Shown in pieces: positions 4,697 to 33,825 of a stretch of 61,478 bases of DNA; within the stretch, counting starts at the first letter, position 1, and the number at the start of each line of letters is the position of its first letter. A program made the position numbers and the translations under genes. A model generated the notes under the pieces. The model ran no database searches, was not told the DNA's origin, and saw nothing but the letters and a program-made list of their open reading frames with translations. The stretch is from a virus. Taxonomy: Duplodnaviria; Caudoviricetes. The stretch covers positions 1-61,478 of the IMG/VR virus record IMGVR_UViG_3300020595_000038; one strand, 5' to 3'.

Positions 4697-5518
4697 TTAT
4701 TTAAGCAATTTTACGATTTCTTCGTAAACTAATTCACCATTTTTGTTACTCAGAACGAAGTTAGTGAAGCCTTGCAGATAACTTGACTTGGTAGATCGTG
4801 GGACCTGGACAATTGTTTCTCCTGTTGCTACCCATGTAAAAGTACTTGTTGCTTTATCAAAGCGAATTACTTTTTTATCAATAGCAGATTTACACGTTGC
4901 TTGTATAGATTTATTCTTATCCTTACTTAATGTCATAAACGTGGTTGGATCTTTTTCAGCCATCACCTCTAATTCATCTCTTAGTATAGATATATCTCTC
5001 TTTTCATCTTTGTTTAAAGATGCTGTAAATTCTCTTACTTCAGCAGCAGAAAGTTCAGCAGCGACATTCATAGCGTCTCTACGTAGATTTCTTTGCTTTC
5101 TTGCATCAGTAGCCTTTTTCTTAGGTTGTACTAATTCAAATAAAGGAACTACACTTTTATCTCTATTTTCATTTGATTTATTATAATTACTTAACATTAA
5201 ATACTGAAAGATCTCTAGATCTCCAGTTTTACTACCTCTAAGTAACATTTTACCTTCTAACTCTTTGTAGAATGCTATAGTATTAAGAATAGGTTTTCCA
5301 CCAACTCCTAAGTTTTTAATAGCAGCAATATCTACATATTCTTCTGATACCGGATCATAAATACGATCAACTTTAGGCATCATTGCTACTGAAGGCATTA
5401 TTTTTTTGCCAGGGTTTTGAGGGTCATTCTTCACATTTAAATATTGGAAGACTTTAACCTCATCTCTTTTTAACATAGGTGGCTTCTCTATGTTATTGAA
5501 TTCTTTTGTTTTTATCAT
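4697..5518 (-). CDS. Hypothetical protein downstream of the capsid gene
   Basis: 273-aa ORF with AAAACCAACAATT leader. Confidence 0.6.
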   Translation of the reverse strand: MIKTKEFNNIEKPPMLKRDEVKVFQYLNVKNDPQNPGKKIMPSVAMMPKVDRIYDPVSEEYVDIAAIKNLGVGGKPILNTIAFYKELEGKMLLRGSKTGDLEIFQYLMLSNYNKSNENRDKSVVPLFELVQPKKKATDARKQRNLRRDAMNVAAELSAAEVREFTASLNKDEKRDISILRDELEVMAEKDPTTFMTLSKDKNKSIQATCKSAIDKKVIRFDKATSTFTWVATGETIVQVPRSTKSSYLQGFTNFVLSNKNGELVYEEIVKLLK

Positions 5519-19730: not shown

Positions 19731-19807
19731 TGCCTGGTAGTTCAATTGGATAGAACAACAGACTTCTAATCTGTAGGTTGAGAGTTCGAGCCTCTCCCAG
19801 GTAACCA
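19731..19807 (+). tRNA. tRNA-Arg(UCU)
   Basis: Acceptor TGCCTGG/CCAGGTA, D arm GTTC/GAAC with GGA, anticodon arm ACAGA-CTTCTAA-TCTGT, T arm GAGAG-TTCGAGC-CTCTC, encoded CCA. Confidence 0.95.
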
Positions 19808-20030
19808 AAATTACCCTCGTTAAATTGATCCAGGTAATACTTACATGTGTTACCTGGTAGCACGAACCCTTACCCAATTCATAGTAATTACCCCCCAAAA
19901 AAAATCTCGGGCGGACGAAATAGTGCGAAAATCGTGCGTGATTTACTATCGTGCAAAAAGTTTTTTAAAGTTTTTTTCCTAGCGTTTACAGGTTGTACAG
20001 AGGTATTTACTAAAAAAAGTGTTATTCACA

Positions 20031-20063
20031 TTTGGTTGTTAATAAAAAAGGTTGTTATATTTG
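20031..20063 (+). promoter_or_regulatory. Bacteroidota housekeeping-sigma early promoter
   Basis: TTTG (20031-34), 21-nt spacer, TATATTTG (20056-63) matches the -33/-7 consensus. Confidence 0.85.
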
Positions 20064-20132
20064 TACCATCGTTCAACGAGTATGACACTCGAAACGCTTA
20101 TTAACTGAATATCAATTATTTAAACTGAAATT

Positions 20133-20378
20133 ATGAATTACTTAAGTACAGAACTGCAAACAGAATACCTTCCAAACTTCATAGGTATCAATGTCCACAA
20201 CGCTAGAATATCATACAGTAATTGGGGCGAGCATGGTGTTGATTTCAACTACTACAAAGATCCTTCTGATCCATTCAATCAACTATTTCAAGAAGATTTA
20301 CATAAGCCTTTTGCAGGCGGTACAGAATTTACTAGCAAAAAAGAAGCCTTAAGATTTATTAACTCTGTAAACCAATAA
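20133..20378 (+). CDS. Early hypothetical protein
   Basis: First ORF after the promoter. Confidence 0.6.
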   Translation: MNYLSTELQTEYLPNFIGINVHNARISYSNWGEHGVDFNYYKDPSDPFNQLFQEDLHKPFAGGTEFTSKKEALRFINSVNQ

Positions 20379-20381
20379 GCC

Positions 20382-20450
20382 ATGATCTTAATAGCAATCG
20401 CATTACCAATCGGATTAGCCGCAGCCTTCTTAAGAAGCAACAATTATTAA
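20382..20450 (+). CDS. 22-aa hydrophobic peptide
   Basis: MILIAIALPIGLAAAFLRSNNY begins 3 nt after the upstream stop. Confidence 0.4.
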   Translation: MILIAIALPIGLAAAFLRSNNY

Positions 20451-20486
20451 CTACCAATTTAATTTAAACTATTCAATATTATTATT

Positions 20487-20762
20487 ATGACAAATTCAAA
20501 TTACAACACCACAGCAAGATTCGACAGACATTCAAACTTCAATCCAATGATGATGTCTTTCATTCAAACAACGATCAACAACTTACGTAACGGAGGCTTC
20601 AGAGCATCTGACCTGGTTAACTCTCTTTACGGAATCTACGATGGTTATTACTACACGAACCTTAGAGCAGAAGCAGATCGTTTATATTCTCATGATATTT
20701 TCATGCTTAGAGATCTACATGCAATAGCAGACACCCTGGACAACATTACAGCCCAGGCTTAA
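20487..20762 (+). CDS. Early hypothetical protein
   Basis: 91-aa ORF; stop abuts hammerhead 1. Confidence 0.65.
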   Translation: MTNSNYNTTARFDRHSNFNPMMMSFIQTTINNLRNGGFRASDLVNSLYGIYDGYYYTNLRAEADRLYSHDIFMLRDLHAIADTLDNITAQA

Positions 20763-20816
20763 GATCACTGATGAGCCTGTGAGATCCAGGCGAAACTTCC
20801 TCCGGGAAGTCTGATT
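20763..20816 (+). ncRNA. Type I hammerhead ribozyme HH1
   Basis: GAUCA-CUGAUGA-GCCUG(UGAGAUC)CAGGC-GAA-ACUUCC(UCCG)GGAAGU-C/UGAUU; full core; cut after 20811. Confidence 0.93.
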
Positions 20817-20839
20817 AATACTAATTTAAACTAAGCAAT

Positions 20840-21175
20840 ATGAATACTGCAACAATTAAAAATGAATTAAAAGAGTACCTAAATGATTTTGTCGCTGACA
20901 ACAACGATGTTAAATGGAATAGCGAAGACAACGATTTACACCAGGAGGCATTTAACCAGGACTATTATTTAATTGGTTACTACAATTGTAATCAATGGCT
21001 AGAGAGTCACGACATCAATATTTTTGATGGTCTCAACTTTGTGCAAGATTACGAAAGAGAGAATTTTGGTGCTGAATCTGTTAGATCTTATCAAGATTCT
21101 GAAGCCCTGGTAAACATGATTACTTACATAATAGGCGAAGAAATAGTAAACGAATTATACACACAAACAATTTAA
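20840..21175 (+). CDS. Acidic early protein, possible Ocr-like DNA mimic
   Basis: 111 aa, D/E-rich, DNDLHQEAFNQDYY reminiscent of T7 Ocr DDLHDAIH; early position. Confidence 0.45.
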   Translation: MNTATIKNELKEYLNDFVADNNDVKWNSEDNDLHQEAFNQDYYLIGYYNCNQWLESHDINIFDGLNFVQDYERENFGAESVRSYQDSEALVNMITYIIGEEIVNELYTQTI

Positions 21176-21185
21176 ACTCAACAAT

Positions 21186-21443
21186 ATGAAAAACAATAAA
21201 ATATTACAGGAACACAGTACAGGAGACCTAATGGCAGAACTAAAGTCAAGAGGAAAATTTATAGACAATCTTTGGACAACACAAGATGTATTTGGAAGGT
21301 ATGATTGTACTGAAGCCGAAGCACAAGAAGTGCTATACGATGCACTAACCAACGATTCAACAATGGAGCAGATTTGGTTTGCTATAGACTTGGCTGCATA
21401 CGATAATGAATTAACTGAAAGAGAGGAGGCTAACAATGGATAG
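21186..21443 (+). CDS. Early acidic hypothetical protein
   Basis: 85-aa ORF. Confidence 0.6.
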   Translation: MKNNKILQEHSTGDLMAELKSRGKFIDNLWTTQDVFGRYDCTEAEAQEVLYDALTNDSTMEQIWFAIDLAAYDNELTEREEANNG

Positions 21444-21753
21444 TATTAATATAATTACAGCAAATGATTATTATAACGGATTGATAGCAGAATACATGGA
21501 TATGATTTTTGATGATAACGACAAGTCAATGATGATAGTAAAAACCCCACAAGGTAATGATATCATATACCTTGATGAACTTAAATACCACACCTCTTGG
21601 GATTGGCTCATGCCTGTAGTAGGAAAAATAAGTCGAGATGAAAGGTTTCTTGATAACGAATACAGAGAGACCCTATTGGATGTCGTTCCTTATGGACGTA
21701 TTCAAGATGTCGTAGATGCAGTAGCAAATTTCATTCTACACGTAAAAAAATAA
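21436..21753 (+). CDS. Early hypothetical protein (YHTSWDWLMPVV family)
   Basis: LKYHTSWDWLMPVVGKI motif, which I recall as recurrent in phage early genes. Confidence 0.65.
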   Translation: MDSINIITANDYYNGLIAEYMDMIFDDNDKSMMIVKTPQGNDIIYLDELKYHTSWDWLMPVVGKISRDERFLDNEYRETLLDVVPYGRIQDVVDAVANFILHVKK

Positions 21754-21754
21754 A

Positions 21755-21806
21755 ACAAACTGACGAGCCTGTGAGATCCAGGCGAAACGCTGAGAAGCGT
21801 CTTTGT
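21755..21806 (+). ncRNA. Type I hammerhead ribozyme HH2
   Basis: ACAAA-CUGACGA-GCCUG(UGAGAUC)CAGGC-GAA-ACGCU(GAGA)AGCGU-C/UUUGU; cut after 21801. Confidence 0.93.
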
Positions 21807-21826
21807 ATAACTAAAAAACAATTACA

Positions 21827-22258
21827 ATGCAGACTATTGAAAACCTTAATGCGATTATCAAATTAAACAAAGCCTTAAAAAACCACGATTGGTATTACGA
21901 AAGATCAGAAGATCCTAGAGTATATAGAAATGGTAGATCACAACGTAACGAGTTAAATATTCTTATGACTGCTATAGGTAATAAGTCTCTTGCTCTCTCC
22001 CTATACAATAAAGCATGTCCTTGGATTGAGATCATTGAATCTGATGAGGTCACCCCGGATCGTTTCAGCATGAGAGAACAAGCACAGGAATTAATAGACA
22101 ATGGAGACTCTACAGAAAAAGCAGAGGGATTTGGAATGATGAGAGTTTTGGATGCGATTATGGATGCTATTGAATATGAAGCAGACAAAGAAGAGGAGCA
22201 GCCAACAGACAGCGATTGTCTTGATCAGATTTACGCAATCTTAAACACCTCAGTATAA
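21827..22258 (+). CDS. Early hypothetical protein (HDWYY domain plus acidic domain)
   Basis: NHDWYYERSED motif; internal in-frame ATG at 22070. Confidence 0.6.
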   Translation: MQTIENLNAIIKLNKALKNHDWYYERSEDPRVYRNGRSQRNELNILMTAIGNKSLALSLYNKACPWIEIIESDEVTPDRFSMREQAQELIDNGDSTEKAEGFGMMRVLDAIMDAIEYEADKEEEQPTDSDCLDQIYAILNTSV

Positions 22259-22566
22259 TGGAAACTTTAAATATTATTAGACAACAGGTAACTACTAGAG
22301 GCGGAGGTATAGAAATATGCCTAGAAAATCAGGGTTATCCAGGAGAAAAAATGACAGCCTACCAAAACTATTTAGGAGGTGGAATTTTAGGTAGAATTGG
22401 TAACGATTGTACAATTAAAAATTGGGATGAGTCTAAACACCTGGTAGATCTCGCAGACAGTTTAGCAAAGATCATGCACAGGATGACAGCACCAATTTAT
22501 TTACAAGGTGAGGAACTTGAGCAAACATATAGTCAAAATCAATCTATGCCAATAAGTGCATACTAA
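22258..22566 (+). CDS. Early hypothetical protein
   Basis: TAATG-coupled to upstream ORF. Confidence 0.6.
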   Translation: METLNIIRQQVTTRGGGIEICLENQGYPGEKMTAYQNYLGGGILGRIGNDCTIKNWDESKHLVDLADSLAKIMHRMTAPIYLQGEELEQTYSQNQSMPISAY

Positions 22567-22577
22567 AATCAAAAACA

Positions 22578-22724
22578 ATGGCAGTTATAACAAGTAAAAA
22601 ACTAACAGAAGTCCAGGATCAATTAATAGATCTTGGATGGGAGACACAGAGAATGTCATCCTCGGGAATAGAATCCTATAATAAATTATGTAGAATATTT
22701 AATGTTGAAGAAGTAGAATTATGA
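22578..22724 (+). CDS. Hypothetical 48-aa protein
   Basis: Hand translated ...LIDLGWETQRMSSSGIESYNKL...; ATGA overlap with next ORF. Confidence 0.6.
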   Translation: MAVITSKKLTEVQDQLIDLGWETQRMSSSGIESYNKLCRIFNVEEVEL

Positions 22725-23086
22725 AACAAGAACAAGAGCAAGTATTTTACAGCGTAACGAAAGCAGTGATCTACGGACAGTTAATGCTTGAAGCGTTAGA
22801 CGATATTAAGGAACTATCAATTTTCAAGCACTCCTTAAAGCATAAGGTGAACCAGGTAGAAAAGGAATTGGAAAAGGAATTGGAAAAGTATATTAATCTG
22901 TTCGCTGAAAACGATGAGCAGTTTTATATGAATATCCAAAACCATATAGACAATTTAGTAACTAAACTTTCAATGCTAGGAGTCGAAGAACTTCCATTGG
23001 TAGCGAAGATCATTGATGAATACATTAACGATAAGGAACATTGGAAAGAGAACTTAACAATACAATTCAAACAATTAAATTCATAA
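22721..23086 (+). CDS. Hypothetical helical protein
   Basis: 121-aa ORF. Confidence 0.6.
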   Translation: MKQEQEQVFYSVTKAVIYGQLMLEALDDIKELSIFKHSLKHKVNQVEKELEKELEKYINLFAENDEQFYMNIQNHIDNLVTKLSMLGVEELPLVAKIIDEYINDKEHWKENLTIQFKQLNS

Positions 23087-23088
23087 GC

Positions 23089-23325
23089 ATGGGAACCAAT
23101 ATTAAAATGGGAAAGTTTATAAAAACGAATGTCCTTGACACGATCTCCAGGAAATATAAATATGATCCGGATCGATCTCTTGTTTATTTAAAAGAGATAA
23201 CAGCACAACTTCTAGAGGTTCAAGCCCTGGTAGATGAAACGACAGTGTACATGAATGATGTACTTGACATTAAAGAAAGAATACTAGCACAAGAATTTTT
23301 AACAAGACAAGGGGATGAGCAGTAA
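23089..23325 (+). CDS. Hypothetical protein
   Basis: Start moved to ATG 23089. Confidence 0.55.
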   Translation: MGTNIKMGKFIKTNVLDTISRKYKYDPDRSLVYLKEITAQLLEVQALVDETTVYMNDVLDIKERILAQEFLTRQGDEQ

Positions 23326-23488
23326 AGAAGATCAAGAGTTAAAAGCACAAATAAAAGAGATGTTTCCTAAAGGAACAAGTGAGCAATTTATAAACAATAT
23401 GTTTCACAGTTTAAGAGGTAAAAAAATGATATGGGATACTTTTTCTATGAACGATAGTAAAAATATAACAAAGAAGTTCACAGATTAA
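23315..23488 (+). CDS. Hypothetical 57-aa protein
   Basis: Hand translated MSSKEDQELKAQIKEMFPKG... Confidence 0.5.
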   Translation: MSSKEDQELKAQIKEMFPKGTSEQFINNMFHSLRGKKMIWDTFSMNDSKNITKKFTD

Positions 23489-23555
23489 ATATAAATAATG
23501 CTTAATTTAGCATTGTCAGACGATGAACGAAAGTTAAAAATTAATTAATACTCAA

Positions 23556-24125
23556 ATGAAAAAAGATATGACCACAGTAAACCACGATATAGATATTATT
23601 TGCGATGCAGTAGCAGTAGTAACTAAAGCAGATCCGCACGCTAAAGATAGAGCAAGAGAAAATGTTGATGCCAGGAGAATTGTTTATAAAATATGTAGAG
23701 AGATGTTGAACCTTACTTATATAAGGATATCAAAATATTTCAACAACAATCACGCTACAGTATTGCATGGTCTTAAACATTTTGATGCTTTATTTGAAAC
23801 GGATAAGGAATTTAGAAGGAATTACAATGCAGTGATGCAAGTAATATCTAGTGTAGAATTTGATAGCAACATCATTGACAGTCAAGATATCCTTGTCGAT
23901 TTTGTAAACTTAAAAACAGAGTCAATGGATATTAAACAAAAATATGAGATGCTGTTAAGATCCCTACATTTTAAAGTTACAGATAAAGTAGACGAGTTGC
24001 TTTCCCCAATCGATAATGAATTGTTACATAAGATAATTCAAGACGACAACTGTTCAAAGGATTTACAGCGTACTATTGGTAAAGTCTTGCAAGTAAAAGT
24101 AAAAAACATTATCTTAACACCCTAG
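23556..24125 (+). CDS. DnaA domain IV-like HTH protein
   Basis: ARRIVYKICRE...ISKYFNNNHATVLHGLK parallels DnaA RQIAMYL...IG..F..RDHTTVLHA. Confidence 0.8.
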   Translation: MKKDMTTVNHDIDIICDAVAVVTKADPHAKDRARENVDARRIVYKICREMLNLTYIRISKYFNNNHATVLHGLKHFDALFETDKEFRRNYNAVMQVISSVEFDSNIIDSQDILVDFVNLKTESMDIKQKYEMLLRSLHFKVTDKVDELLSPIDNELLHKIIQDDNCSKDLQRTIGKVLQVKVKNIILTP

Positions 24126-24268
24126 TTATCATTTAACTAGCGTACAAGTCTGATTACATAGATGTAGTCGGCACATAGAAATACGATTGTAAACAAAATA
24201 AAGATGATCGGGTCATAAGAAATCCTATGTCTGTCAACTTACAATTGTATCATTATTAACTAAACAAA

Positions 24269-24580: not shown

Positions 24581-25531
24581 ATGAATACAGGCAGTTTTAT
24601 CTCATTACTTAAGCAAGTCATTACTCTATTAGAGGATGGATCTATTTTAAACTATGGTAAGAAGTTTTCCAATCTTACTATTACCTCTTATAGACAAGTG
24701 TATAATCAGATGACTGCCTATAAGTTTAACTTTGACATAGAGAGTTTAGATCTTAATAACGTTAACAATAGAAAGGATAGACTTAAGGTCACCCGAAATT
24801 TACAGTCACATGTAAATAAATATCTAAATCTTATGTTGGACGATTGTAAACACCATAACACTAGAAAAACACACCTTAAGATCATACGAACTACACTTAA
24901 GAAAGCAGAAGCATATTACGGATATATGTTCCCAGGGCTACAAAGTATGAGAGAGTTACAAACAGAAGTCATTGCATTAGATCCAACACAGGTAGAGTTA
25001 ATACATAACAACAACCCGGGAATCGAACTCGAAGATGTTTGGTACTATACCAGGCTAATGCTATACTCTTGCATGAGGGTAAGTGATTTGGTAAACTTCC
25101 AGGCATCATCCGATGGAAGCGAAGTTACTATTATAACTAAAAAAGGAATCGGATCTATATCATCTTTCTATTTACCAAAAGATGTTCGTGATTTCCTGGA
25201 GGGGAAGGGATCTTTTTCTCATTCTCAACAATACTTTAGAGTTCAACTTAAAACGTTGCTTAAATCCTATAAACAATTACACGAAAAGAAAATAGTATAT
25301 ACTTATGATCACAATGGGAATCCTGTGCATGAGGAAAAATTTCTTTACGACATTATAACTCCACACAAATTAAGAGCAAGCGGAATTACTTACCACTTAT
25401 CAAAAGGCTTAAGTGAAATAGAGGCAAGGAATATTAGCGGTCACACAAATGGATCAACAGCATTCTACAGATACGTAAAGCACTCTAATAAATCTTCCAT
25501 AGAAAAACAAAAAAAATACTCAACATTATAA
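24581..25531 (+). CDS. Tyrosine recombinase
   Basis: Catalytic residues: CMRVSD, TKK, HKLR, SGH, RY. Confidence 0.9.
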   Translation: MNTGSFISLLKQVITLLEDGSILNYGKKFSNLTITSYRQVYNQMTAYKFNFDIESLDLNNVNNRKDRLKVTRNLQSHVNKYLNLMLDDCKHHNTRKTHLKIIRTTLKKAEAYYGYMFPGLQSMRELQTEVIALDPTQVELIHNNNPGIELEDVWYYTRLMLYSCMRVSDLVNFQASSDGSEVTIITKKGIGSISSFYLPKDVRDFLEGKGSFSHSQQYFRVQLKTLLKSYKQLHEKKIVYTYDHNGNPVHEEKFLYDIITPHKLRASGITYHLSKGLSEIEARNISGHTNGSTAFYRYVKHSNKSSIEKQKKYSTL

Positions 25532-32308: not shown

Positions 32309-33559
32309 CTAGTGCTTCAATTTATCCTTCAGCATTTTAAACATATCATTCACTCTGTATTTTTCTAAAATGTCAGAGTGATATTTTGTATACTTTTCTA
32401 GCATCTGTGGTGCTTGAGTATCTTTGTAATGTACTGAAATAGTATTGTCGTTTTGATACATGAGTTCTCTCATGTCAGCATCTGGAACACTAAGTATAGA
32501 TCCTGTTGTTTGAAATGCTTTTCTTACAGACTTAAAGGGATGCCCAGTAATTACTTTAAACCTGCGTTGTATTTTCGTCCAGAAAGTTAAGTCTTTACCT
32601 CCACCTAAAGGGAAAATAGACTCACATGTTGGATCAATCATATTATTTAATAAAGATATAATTTCCTCAATAGGATCTAACCCCATGTAAACCAGACCCA
32701 TTTTATTAGTTTTTGATCTATTATGTTTGTACACCATGTTCTTTTCACCAAATGAAAATCTTTCTGTATTTTCATAGGTCGAGTCTACAAATCTATCCAT
32801 TGATAACAAAAGAATATCACGAATATAAAGTCCTCTCATTGAGAACAGCAATAAGTAAGTTAAAATAGAGGTAACAGAAAATTCAAATTCATTATTGTTA
32901 ACGTCTAGACCATTAATAACCTTGATTAAATCTTCAGACCTCATCCATTTTGGTTCTAGTTTTTTAGAAGCAACAGTTCTGACGTATGAAAAAGAAGTAA
33001 ATGTAATCTCATCTTTTACTGCATGGTTATGAACTGCTTTTGCAACTCTCCTGTATGAATTAAATGAAGCAGGACTTCTTTGTAGTTCTTTAAATTTATC
33101 TTTTAGTTTTAACCAATTATTTTTATCAGCCAATTCTTCAAACGTAATTTTTCTAGTACCATTAAAATGTGTTGCAATCGTACACATTTGCCCTCTGTAA
33201 GAATTAAAAGTATTTTCTTTAATTTGATTTTTAAGATGTTGATCCATGTATGAAACAATATCGTTCAAACGAGACCCACCTAAAAGCCTATTGCGAGCCT
33301 CTTCGTATGTCAAAACAGCGAAAGTATTTTGATCATAGAGTTCATTAACAGTCCTACTTAATTTTTTTAGTTTTTTATTTACTAAGTCATAGTAAGGATG
33401 ATTGGGTTTAAGTCTTTTGTTTCTATTATCCCAATGTTTTTTAATTACTTTTATTTTAGTGGGAATTTTTTTATCAAACTGTTTGGTTTTAAAACGAACA
33501 TGTAATAATACAGATCCATCTTTATTTGTTTCATTTCTAGTACATATTGTTAATGCCAT
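32309..33559 (-). CDS. int: Bacteroidota-type tyrosine integrase, divergent active site
   Basis: Arm-binding N-terminus (NKDG...IPTKIKV..KHWD), SAM-like core, RGLYIRD, RSKT, KSVRK, HY. Confidence 0.8.
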   Translation of the reverse strand: MALTICTRNETNKDGSVLLHVRFKTKQFDKKIPTKIKVIKKHWDNRNKRLKPNHPYYDLVNKKLKKLSRTVNELYDQNTFAVLTYEEARNRLLGGSRLNDIVSYMDQHLKNQIKENTFNSYRGQMCTIATHFNGTRKITFEELADKNNWLKLKDKFKELQRSPASFNSYRRVAKAVHNHAVKDEITFTSFSYVRTVASKKLEPKWMRSEDLIKVINGLDVNNNEFEFSVTSILTYLLLFSMRGLYIRDILLLSMDRFVDSTYENTERFSFGEKNMVYKHNRSKTNKMGLVYMGLDPIEEIISLLNNMIDPTCESIFPLGGGKDLTFWTKIQRRFKVITGHPFKSVRKAFQTTGSILSVPDADMRELMYQNDNTISVHYKDTQAPQMLEKYTKYHSDILEKYRVNDMFKMLKDKLKH

Positions 33560-33825
33560 GGTTCCCAATTTGTTCCCTTAAGTATATTATACTACTTTTA
33601 GGTGGTTGACCACTAAGTTATGCACAATTTAAAAAAACCAGAGAAGATGTTATTAACATTAGGGCAAAGTTATTGTATGTTTGGGGCGATAAAACAACGA
33701 AATACTAATTATTAATCATTGTTAATTATAGTCAAATATACGACTTAATTTTAGATATTTACCCTGTTAGAAAGGGTTTAGAAGTATTTTTGATATTTCT
33801 TGTTTGTTCCCTAATTTGGGACACA
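33560..33825. other. Candidate attP / integrase control region
   Basis: Arm-like GTTCCC repeats at 33561, 33572 and 33806, inverted GGGACAC at 33818; TATATTTG on minus strand at 33733-33740. Confidence 0.4.

Follow-up and report, generated by a model that had tools for sequence, protein, structure and literature searches.

The virus record IMGVR_UViG_3300020595_000038 of IMG/VR, whose 61,478 nucleotides (nt) form the window analysed here, carries two type-I hammerhead ribozyme motifs, HH1 and HH2, in a rightward block of small genes. The motifs were found by direct reading of positions 19900-22200 and by a motif script run on both strands, and no other full type-I hammerhead motif was present on either strand of the window. 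HH1 directly follows a conserved 91-aa open reading frame (ORF), HH2 precedes a conserved 143-aa ORF, and three ORFs lie between the two. RNA transcribed from this block would probably cut itself at HH1 and HH2 into linear pieces. The parts of the locus are as follows.

19935..19964 (hairpin 19935-19955), + strand: terminator-like hairpin and T run, from a consensus scan only, between a tRNA-Arg gene and the operon
20031..20063, + strand: promoter-like TTTG, 21 nt, TAnnTTTG, at the head of the rightward gene block
20133..20762, + strand: predicted first RNA segment, with 81-aa, possible 22-aa and 91-aa ORFs without a Pfam or PHROG function
20133-20378, + strand: 81-aa ORF, first gene of the operon
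20382-20450, + strand: possible 22-aa hydrophobic ORF, spotted by eye between the first two genes of the operon
20487-20762, + strand: conserved 91-aa ORF, its TAA abutting HH1
20763..20816, + strand: HH1, type-I hammerhead, predicted cut after C20811
20812..20839, + strand: HH1 leader, 28 nt, A/U-rich, holding ATTTAAAC at 20824-20831; conserved up to the ATG in relatives
20840..21753, + strand: variable cargo of three ORFs, all acidic, differing among relatives
20840-21175, + strand: 111-aa ORF, PHROG 10208 (function unknown)
21186-21443, + strand: 85-aa ORF of the cargo
21436-21753, + strand: 105-aa ORF of the cargo, its TAA (21751-21753) preceding HH2
21755..21806, + strand: HH2, type-I hammerhead, predicted cut after C21801
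21802..22258, + strand: 25-nt leader (UUUGUAUAAC...) and conserved 143-aa ORF (21827-22258), opening the predicted third RNA segment

The two ribozymes themselves are built as follows.

20760-20762; 20763-20767, + strand: HH1, stop codon TAA; stem I 5' strand, directly after the stop
20768-20774; 20775-20791, + strand: HH1, core CUGAUGA; stem II and loop
20792-20795; 20796-20809, + strand: HH1, GAAA; stem III with UCCG loop
20810-20811; 20812-20816, + strand: HH1, U16.1 and C17; stem I 3' strand
20840, + strand: next ATG after HH1, 28 nt past the cut
21751-21753; 21755-21759, + strand: HH2, stop codon TAA, then one A; stem I 5' strand
21760-21766; 21767-21783, + strand: HH2, core CUGACGA; stem II
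21784-21787; 21788-21799, + strand: HH2, GAAA; stem III with GAGA loop
21800-21801; 21802-21806, + strand: HH2, UC; stem I 3' strand
21827, + strand: next ATG after HH2, 25 nt past the cut

A preliminary description of this DNA had placed the start of each ribozyme within two bases of a stop codon and the cuts 28 and 25 nt before the next ATG. Both reading and script agree with these positions: the distance from the stop is 0 nt for HH1 and 1 nt for HH2, the distances to the ATG are exact, and the piece between the predicted cuts, 20812-21801, is 990 nt long. HH1 and HH2 have an identical 24-nt stretch in common, consisting of stem II, its 7-nt loop and GAAA, while their stems I and III differ. 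This stretch had two matches in the window and none in 100 shuffles. Chance motifs averaged 0.025 per window in first-order Markov simulations, with one motif in 5 of 200 and two in none. When folded in isolation, both ribozymes adopted a three-way junction as their minimum-energy structure, in which stem I is open and stems II and III are capped. All 15 pairs are standard in each, and the core nucleotides and core-adjacent pairs are canonical. The complete hammerhead core (C3 U4 G5 A6 N7 G8 A9, G12 A13 A14, A15.1-U16.1, H17) is present in HH1, HH2 and 17 distinct relatives; the cut-site H17 is generally C, with A in the loci L029 and L039 and U in L046.

Covariation, placement and cargo in relatives

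We then compared the ribozymes with those of related contigs. An exact scan for the core gave 15 loci on 12 IMG/VR contigs, 11 of them two-copy (705-1051 nt apart), and 19 loci in metagenomes. In an alignment of 16 distinct hammerhead sequences (A1), 97.1% of the paired cells held standard pairs compared with 76.8% in shuffles, a level reached by 0 of 500 shuffles. Two-sided changes were seen at 5 of 5 pairs in stem I and 3 of 5 in stem III, and sliding the partner columns by 1-3 reduced the pairing to 21-39%. The unpaired stem III cells of A1 come mainly from the rows of L029 and L039, which were misaligned by MAFFT, and the invariance of stem II in A1 is an artefact of collecting the set by that sequence; stem II differs and still pairs in the second L029 copy and in HH-mid and HH4, two further hammerheads of the relatives. 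The class of the stem III tetraloop (UNCG or GNRA) is kept in the window and its clade although the sequence varies. A covariance model, R1, scored HH1 at 82.8 bits, HH1 being a training member of R1, and HH2 at 73.3 bits, and a model derived from A1 revealed no third copy in the window.

The placement of the ribozymes was equally constant. Across 30 instances from 22 sources, which include many near-copies and are not 30 independent events, a TAA stood 0-1 nt before stem I in every case and the cut lay 16-38 nt ahead of the next ATG in every case. This TAA closes an ORF of at least 47 codons in 25 of the 30; in three the frame leaves the contig, and in two (L040 and L046) there is no ORF. A ribozyme-independent search with an alignment of the downstream 143-aa protein yielded 78 loci, and HH2 was kept in the same gap before the 143-aa gene in all 14 close relatives (at least 60% identity), three of whose contigs carry a one-base core variant missed by the pattern scan. 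The conservation of placement in relatives, on which the preliminary description had let its proposal depend, was thus borne out. The script found no type-I hammerhead in the 64 distant loci that have only the N-terminal domain in common, and the A1-derived covariance model gave one weak candidate there (L078, 25.4 bits, with an extra U after A9). The compensatory changes and the kept tetraloop classes show that the ribozymes are selected for their fold, and on this comparative sequence evidence HH1 and HH2 are genuine hammerheads.

Two other phage contigs, L006 and L029 (described below), show a similar clustering. L006 (- strand) holds a type-I copy of this core family at 1191-1254, with a long, interrupted stem III, and about 300 nt downstream of it a type-II hammerhead at 1553-1630, which passes Rfam RF02276 with 47.9 bits against a threshold of 37.

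The relatives carry three to four hammerheads per operon, in the order HH1, HH-mid, HH2 and HH4, all located in stop-to-start gaps or overlapping them. HH-mid, whose stem II differs, would cut the HH1-HH2 interval again, and HH4, with a long stem III, sits before a gene of about 194 aa. The extra copies map as follows.

L055, 2545-2592: extra hammerhead
L055, 4003-4088: extra hammerhead
L052, 3721-3804: extra hammerhead
L057, 883-967: extra hammerhead
L061, 3522-3605: extra hammerhead

We mapped the ends of the upstream ORFs in five loci (L048, L052, L055, L057 and L061). The UGA of the ribozyme core serves as the stop of the upstream ORF at the HH-mid of L055 and L048 and at the HH4 of L052, L057 and L061, and the L055 ORF before HH4 continues to a TAA within loop II. 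HH2 and HH4 of the relatives agree in the 3' strand of stem I and in the leader TTTGTATAA. At L029 (5066-5396), two type-I hammerheads have an identical stem I (ATCCA/TGGAT) and 17-nt leader, while stems II and III differ and still pair; the 273-nt segment that they enclose (5116-5388) holds one 65-aa ORF, and the TAA of this ORF has 1 nt in common with stem I. Judged by these arrays, the window is the minimal form of a larger arrangement, which is newly seen here.

The genes between HH1 and HH2 came in at least five layouts among the genomes. The window has the 111-aa gene and two others; the relatives have two membrane-like genes of 46-47 aa together with the 111-aa gene, a gene of 81-84 aa or both; and a TARA scaffold has 45-aa and 122-aa genes. 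In blastn comparisons, homology to the relatives ends at 20834-20844, the end of the HH1 leader, and returns at 21742-21753, the 5' edge of HH2. HH1 and HH2 are thus conserved bookends of a variable gene slot, also newly seen here.

The 5' flank of the window's HH2 (21736-21789), an A-rich sequence containing the end of a lysine-rich ORF, is 89% identical over 54 nt to the HH4 5' flank of L057 (866-917). This likeness hints at recombination between ribozyme copies.

Genome setting and transcripts

The record is a whole virus genome with an estimated completeness of 97% and a G+C content of 35%. Pfam domains on its virion side comprise crAss-type muzzle and tail-ring domains, an SU10-type capsid protein and an amidase; other domains include a YqaJ recombinase, a primase-helicase, a DnaA-type HTH, Cpn10 and an Arm-type DNA-binding domain. 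The source is an uncultured marine phage, its genome nearly complete in the record and its virion genes crAss-like. Two integrase-related ORFs, at 24581-25531 and 32309-33568, show a weak Phage_integrase match and an Arm-DNA-bind_5 domain, which suggests that a temperate lifestyle is possible in a phage with such virion genes. A blastn search of 20000-22300 against 50,697 phage records gave no match. No host or prophage was identified: scans of genome contigs gave no match to the 143-aa protein alignment, and the ribozyme core was absent from 185,579 species genomes. TAA is the stop codon of 33 of the 51 long ORFs of the window.

The ribozymes are located near the head of a rightward block of small acidic genes that runs into the replication genes. 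Upstream lies a tRNA-Arg(UCU) gene (19731-19807), and the terminator-like hairpin between it and the operon suggests that a new transcription unit begins downstream; the consensus scan found no further + strand terminator-like site in 20000-24200 except stem III of HH2. The preliminary description had read 20031-63 as a host-type promoter. A motif of the form TTTG..TAnnTTTG, which we take to be the Bacteroidetes-type promoter consensus, is present there. With 8 occurrences in the window against 4.2 expected, however, this pattern shows no enrichment and is not significant by itself. Early timing and a host-type promoter are thus properties that we infer for this operon. In the marine crAss-like phage phi14:2, an injected virion polymerase is reported to read the early genes, which have no promoter motif in common, and the host enzyme to transcribe the middle and late genes (bioRxiv 10.1101/2020.03.07.982082). 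The DFDxD motif of crAss-type virion RNA polymerase is absent from the 2931-, 1741- and 1539-aa proteins of the window, and a search of the Protein Data Bank (PDB) for a virion polymerase gave no sequence match for the 2931- and 1741-aa proteins.

The three proteins encoded between the ribozymes are acidic, as had been described (isoelectric points 4.05, 4.19 and 4.40), and the neighbouring genes mostly encode acidic products as well (4.4-5.8). Searches of the 10 small operon proteins against Pfam and PHROGs returned only families of unknown function, and the ESM Atlas gave no usable match for the 111-aa and 143-aa proteins. The octamer ATTTAAAC occurs at 20118-20125, 20462-20469, 20824-20831 and 21170-21177, in each case 7-17 nt ahead of one of four consecutive start codons, and the relatives have it in their HH1 leaders as well. 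A role in translation start, or as an element of the leader, is possible; over the whole genome the octamer is not enriched (12 observed, 7.5 expected).

Parts of the window were found in 12 marine metatranscriptome runs, all as contigs, and four of these runs were compared with the window. Contigs in two of them (X1 and X2) match only the ribozyme core (20766-20796) and then continue into other stems III and I; these loose ends at 20766 and 20796 belong to other transcripts, so further transcribed hammerheads of this core family exist in those samples.

Processing of the operon RNA

The hammerheads are placed precisely in the gaps of a single rightward block, which makes a self-processing polycistronic RNA the natural reading. 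The block of small genes would be transcribed as one long RNA, in which HH1 and HH2 fold during synthesis and cut after C20811 and C21801, giving three linear pieces. Every upstream piece would retain the compact ribozyme as its 3' portion and end in a 2',3'-cyclic phosphate. The downstream pieces would each begin with a 5'-OH, as on the 28-nt HH1 leader, and with an unstructured A/U-rich leader of 25-28 nt before the ATG. The pieces would then likely be uncoupled in stability and translation start, and free of the structure, ribosome traffic and decay of their neighbours, and the HH1-HH2 interval would offer a slot where accessory genes could come and go without upsetting the conserved neighbours. 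The proposal of a self-processing operon put forward in the preliminary description is thus upheld as to real, conserved hammerheads in stop-to-start gaps, whereas the circular product that it attached to them is unsupported. We consider processing into linear pieces probable, and the comparative evidence supports it well.

Several observations weigh against this reading. Neither HH1 nor HH2 reached the gathering score of any Rfam family: the best sub-threshold family, RAGATH-1-hammerhead (RF03152), gave 24.4 and 19.9 bits where 56.3 are required (E-value mode), and RF00008 gave at best 19.3 bits against 48.5. None of the type-I copies at 11 further loci passed gathering either, a miss that lies with the models and not with the motif. 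When HH1 is folded together with 106 nt of context, its minimum-energy structure is no longer the ribozyme: the stem II 5' strand is taken up by the end of the upstream ORF, where CCAGGC, in the last codons of the 91-aa ORF, repeats the stem II 3' strand (20745-20780); in most relatives, whose upstream sequence differs, this alternative fold is not conserved. Stem I is only 5 bp in both ribozymes, and no Watson-Crick or pseudoknot partner of loop II was seen by eye in the conserved flanks, so that fast cleavage at cellular Mg2+ is unproven. A contig of the X2 sample (record 13, 21773-22103) runs through the HH2 cut site; on one side it extends for 29 nt, just short of the required 31 nt, and uncleaved RNA or carried-over DNA may therefore exist. 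Furthermore, the effect of a 5'-OH on decay varies among bacteria, protecting RNA against RNase E and being a target for RNase J1.

Alternatively, the ribozymes could act as gates or attenuators, in which cleavage is coupled to upstream translation or the cut speeds downstream decay and so gives a falling expression gradient. A ribosome terminating at an abutting or internal stop would cover stem I and the core. The stop codon 0-1 nt before stem I in all 30 instances fits such coupling, as do the upstream ORFs that end inside the ribozyme (L055, L048, L052, L057 and L061) and the L029 stop overlapping stem I; the alternative HH1 fold with the upstream coding context is one that a ribosome would melt, and regulated cleavage is suggested for some phage hammerheads by Perreault et al. 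(PMC3088659). However, tight phage gene packing predicts the same abutment without coupling, the alternative HH1 fold is not a feature of most relatives, and the bases before stem I do not behave as a stop codon throughout. They are TAA in 15 of the 16 aligned sequences and AAA in one (the window's HH2), HH4 copies in relatives also have AAA, and in L040 and L046 no ORF ends at the TAA. The A-A may thus be structural and not a translational signal, a candidate tertiary contact or part of the ribozyme that doubles as a stop. On balance, gating is unlikely.

Less likely still is a role of the ribozyme sequences as DNA, in which identical border blocks of 24-29 nt are homologous recombination anchors for swapping cassettes between co-infecting phages. 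Such anchors would be akin to the promoter-stem-loop borders of T4-type phages. The five or more cargo layouts, the break of homology right at the ribozyme edges and the HH2 flank that resembles the L057 HH4 flank as if copies had recombined are all compatible with it. In contrast, the compensatory changes in stems I and III and the maintained tetraloop classes indicate selection on RNA fold and not on DNA identity, genes are gained and lost also at gene borders inside the cassette, off the ribozymes, and the cargo would be lost if the two direct copies of a genome recombined with each other. We therefore hold this role to be improbable.

The preliminary description had further suggested that the 990-nt three-gene RNA may become a circular mRNA whose hybrid stem I is unable to re-cleave. 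That a host RtcB-type ligase joins it into such a circle, resistant to exonucleases, we regard as very improbable. Hammerhead ends (5'-OH and 2',3'-cyclic phosphate) are indeed RtcB substrates, and reading confirms that joining would set ACAAA of HH2 opposite UGAUU of HH1. Yet these halves make only two of five possible pairs and are incompatible, and the mismatch removes the only known way in which a hammerhead-bounded RNA holds its ends together. In the predicted fold the ends are unpaired with each other, the 5' end folding locally and the 3' end staying in HH2, and the fold has ordinary stability (-191.4 kcal/mol; shuffles, -188.3 ± 8.1; z = -0.38). HH-mid would re-cut the interval in relatives, so a three-gene circle is not a conserved product, and Pfam detected no RNA-ligase, RtcB or polynucleotide kinase domain among the 30 ORFs of at least 150 aa in the window. 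The 21801-to-20812 joint, expected in metatranscriptomes if circles form, was absent from the contigs of the four marine metatranscriptomes, which is weak evidence because contigs drop rare forms; the same contig sets list two joints, both unrelated to it. For clustered prophage hammerheads, circular or spliced products were considered possible and looked for, and neither is reported as detected (Perreault et al. 2011, PMC3088659).

A geometry suited to templated joining is found elsewhere. In the L029 pair, with its common stem I and leader, and in HH2 and HH4 of the relatives, an excised RNA could pair its 5' end with the ribozyme at its 3' end, so that stem I forms anew. This may be a mere duplication of a unit of ribozyme plus leader, and a helix of 5 bp would hold only weakly over 0.3-1 kb; these loci are still the place to look for circles. 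The wider idea that hammerhead-bounded phage mRNA pieces are joined into translatable circles, for which the window would need a host ligase alone, is equally improbable. If true, it would mean that tailed phages make protein-coding circular RNAs through ribozyme excision.

Comparison with known systems

The predicted self-processing into linear pieces would do, in a self-contained way, what RNase III does in maturing the early RNA of phages and what ribozyme insulators do in synthetic constructs. In the T7 early mRNA matured by RNase III and in RiboJ insulators, intergenic cuts give cistrons defined leaders. The window resembles both in that a polycistronic RNA would be cut in its gaps to leave a leader independent of the upstream sequence, whereas T7 uses a host protein enzyme that leaves 5'-phosphate ends and RiboJ is engineered.

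In viroid-like RNAs and retrozymes (de la Pena and colleagues), as predicted for the window, an RNA of about 1 kb is freed by two flanking hammerheads with ends suited to RtcB-type or tRNA ligases. Their flanking ribozymes are copies, their ends re-form the helix, and the RNA is compact and non-coding; in contrast, the window has mismatched stem I halves, an ordinary fold and a coding RNA. Like RAGATH-1 (RF03152), the window's hammerheads are of type I, have a stem I of 5 bp and a long stem III, and agree with it in the core, but they lack the upstream hairpin, score under gathering and are not members by the Rfam threshold. A family common in marine viral contigs thus escapes the Rfam hammerhead models.

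Type-I hammerheads are also found in the 5' untranslated regions (5'-UTRs) of fungal and plant RNA viruses, where self-cleavage is needed for downstream translation according to Lopez-Galiano et al. 2026 (PMC13725137). The type-I motif just upstream of an ORF is a common feature, but those systems are eukaryotic and cap-independent with RNA genomes, and a translation role in the window is without support. HHphage of the haloviruses HF1 and HF2, as described by Perreault et al. (PMC3088659), precedes by 13 nt the gene that opens an early polycistronic transcript, and the 5' end mapped for this transcript is at most 3 nt from the cut. It is similar to the window's ribozymes in lying a few nt before a start codon, and different in its variant core needing high salt, its single copy and its archaeal host.

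The closest precedent is the prophage hammerhead clusters of Perreault et al. 2011 (PMC3088659). These clusters flank single genes or short variable gene blocks, and processing of a long transcript was proposed; tandem copies were seen in native polycistronic RNAs of about 2 kb in three bacteria, with the expected products in vitro and, for one set, in vivo. The suggestion that the window holds an undescribed system therefore does not stand, as both phage hammerhead clusters and the idea of a circle appear in that text. Beyond it, our literature search found no natural hammerhead coupled to a stop codon and no circular phage mRNA made through hammerheads, which is no proof of absence. After fifteen years of cataloguing of bacterial and phage hammerheads, a 2019 review still lists their purpose as unresolved (PMC6765202).

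The window and the clusters are alike in having same-strand hammerheads (two in the window, three to four in relatives) in gaps that flank gene blocks, in enclosing genes that are not constant, and in being read as sites of long-transcript processing, a reading that was thus already in print. They differ in that the window belongs to an uncultured marine lineage in which every copy is of type I, its stem I being 5 bp long and its stem II and loop fixed, in that its ribozymes bookend one defined slot, and in that the upstream stop abuts the ribozyme or lies inside it. No new kind of system is revealed here; the fresh detail is the bookended variable slot, the two to four ribozymes per operon, the stops touching or inside the ribozyme and the Rfam-missed marine family. 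With ribozymes fixed from stop to start, exchanged genes and a stop codon in contact with the ribozyme or within it, this lineage provides an unusually clean natural test bed, in which translation insulation, separate lifetimes of the RNA pieces and gating by ribosome traffic become questions for reporters.

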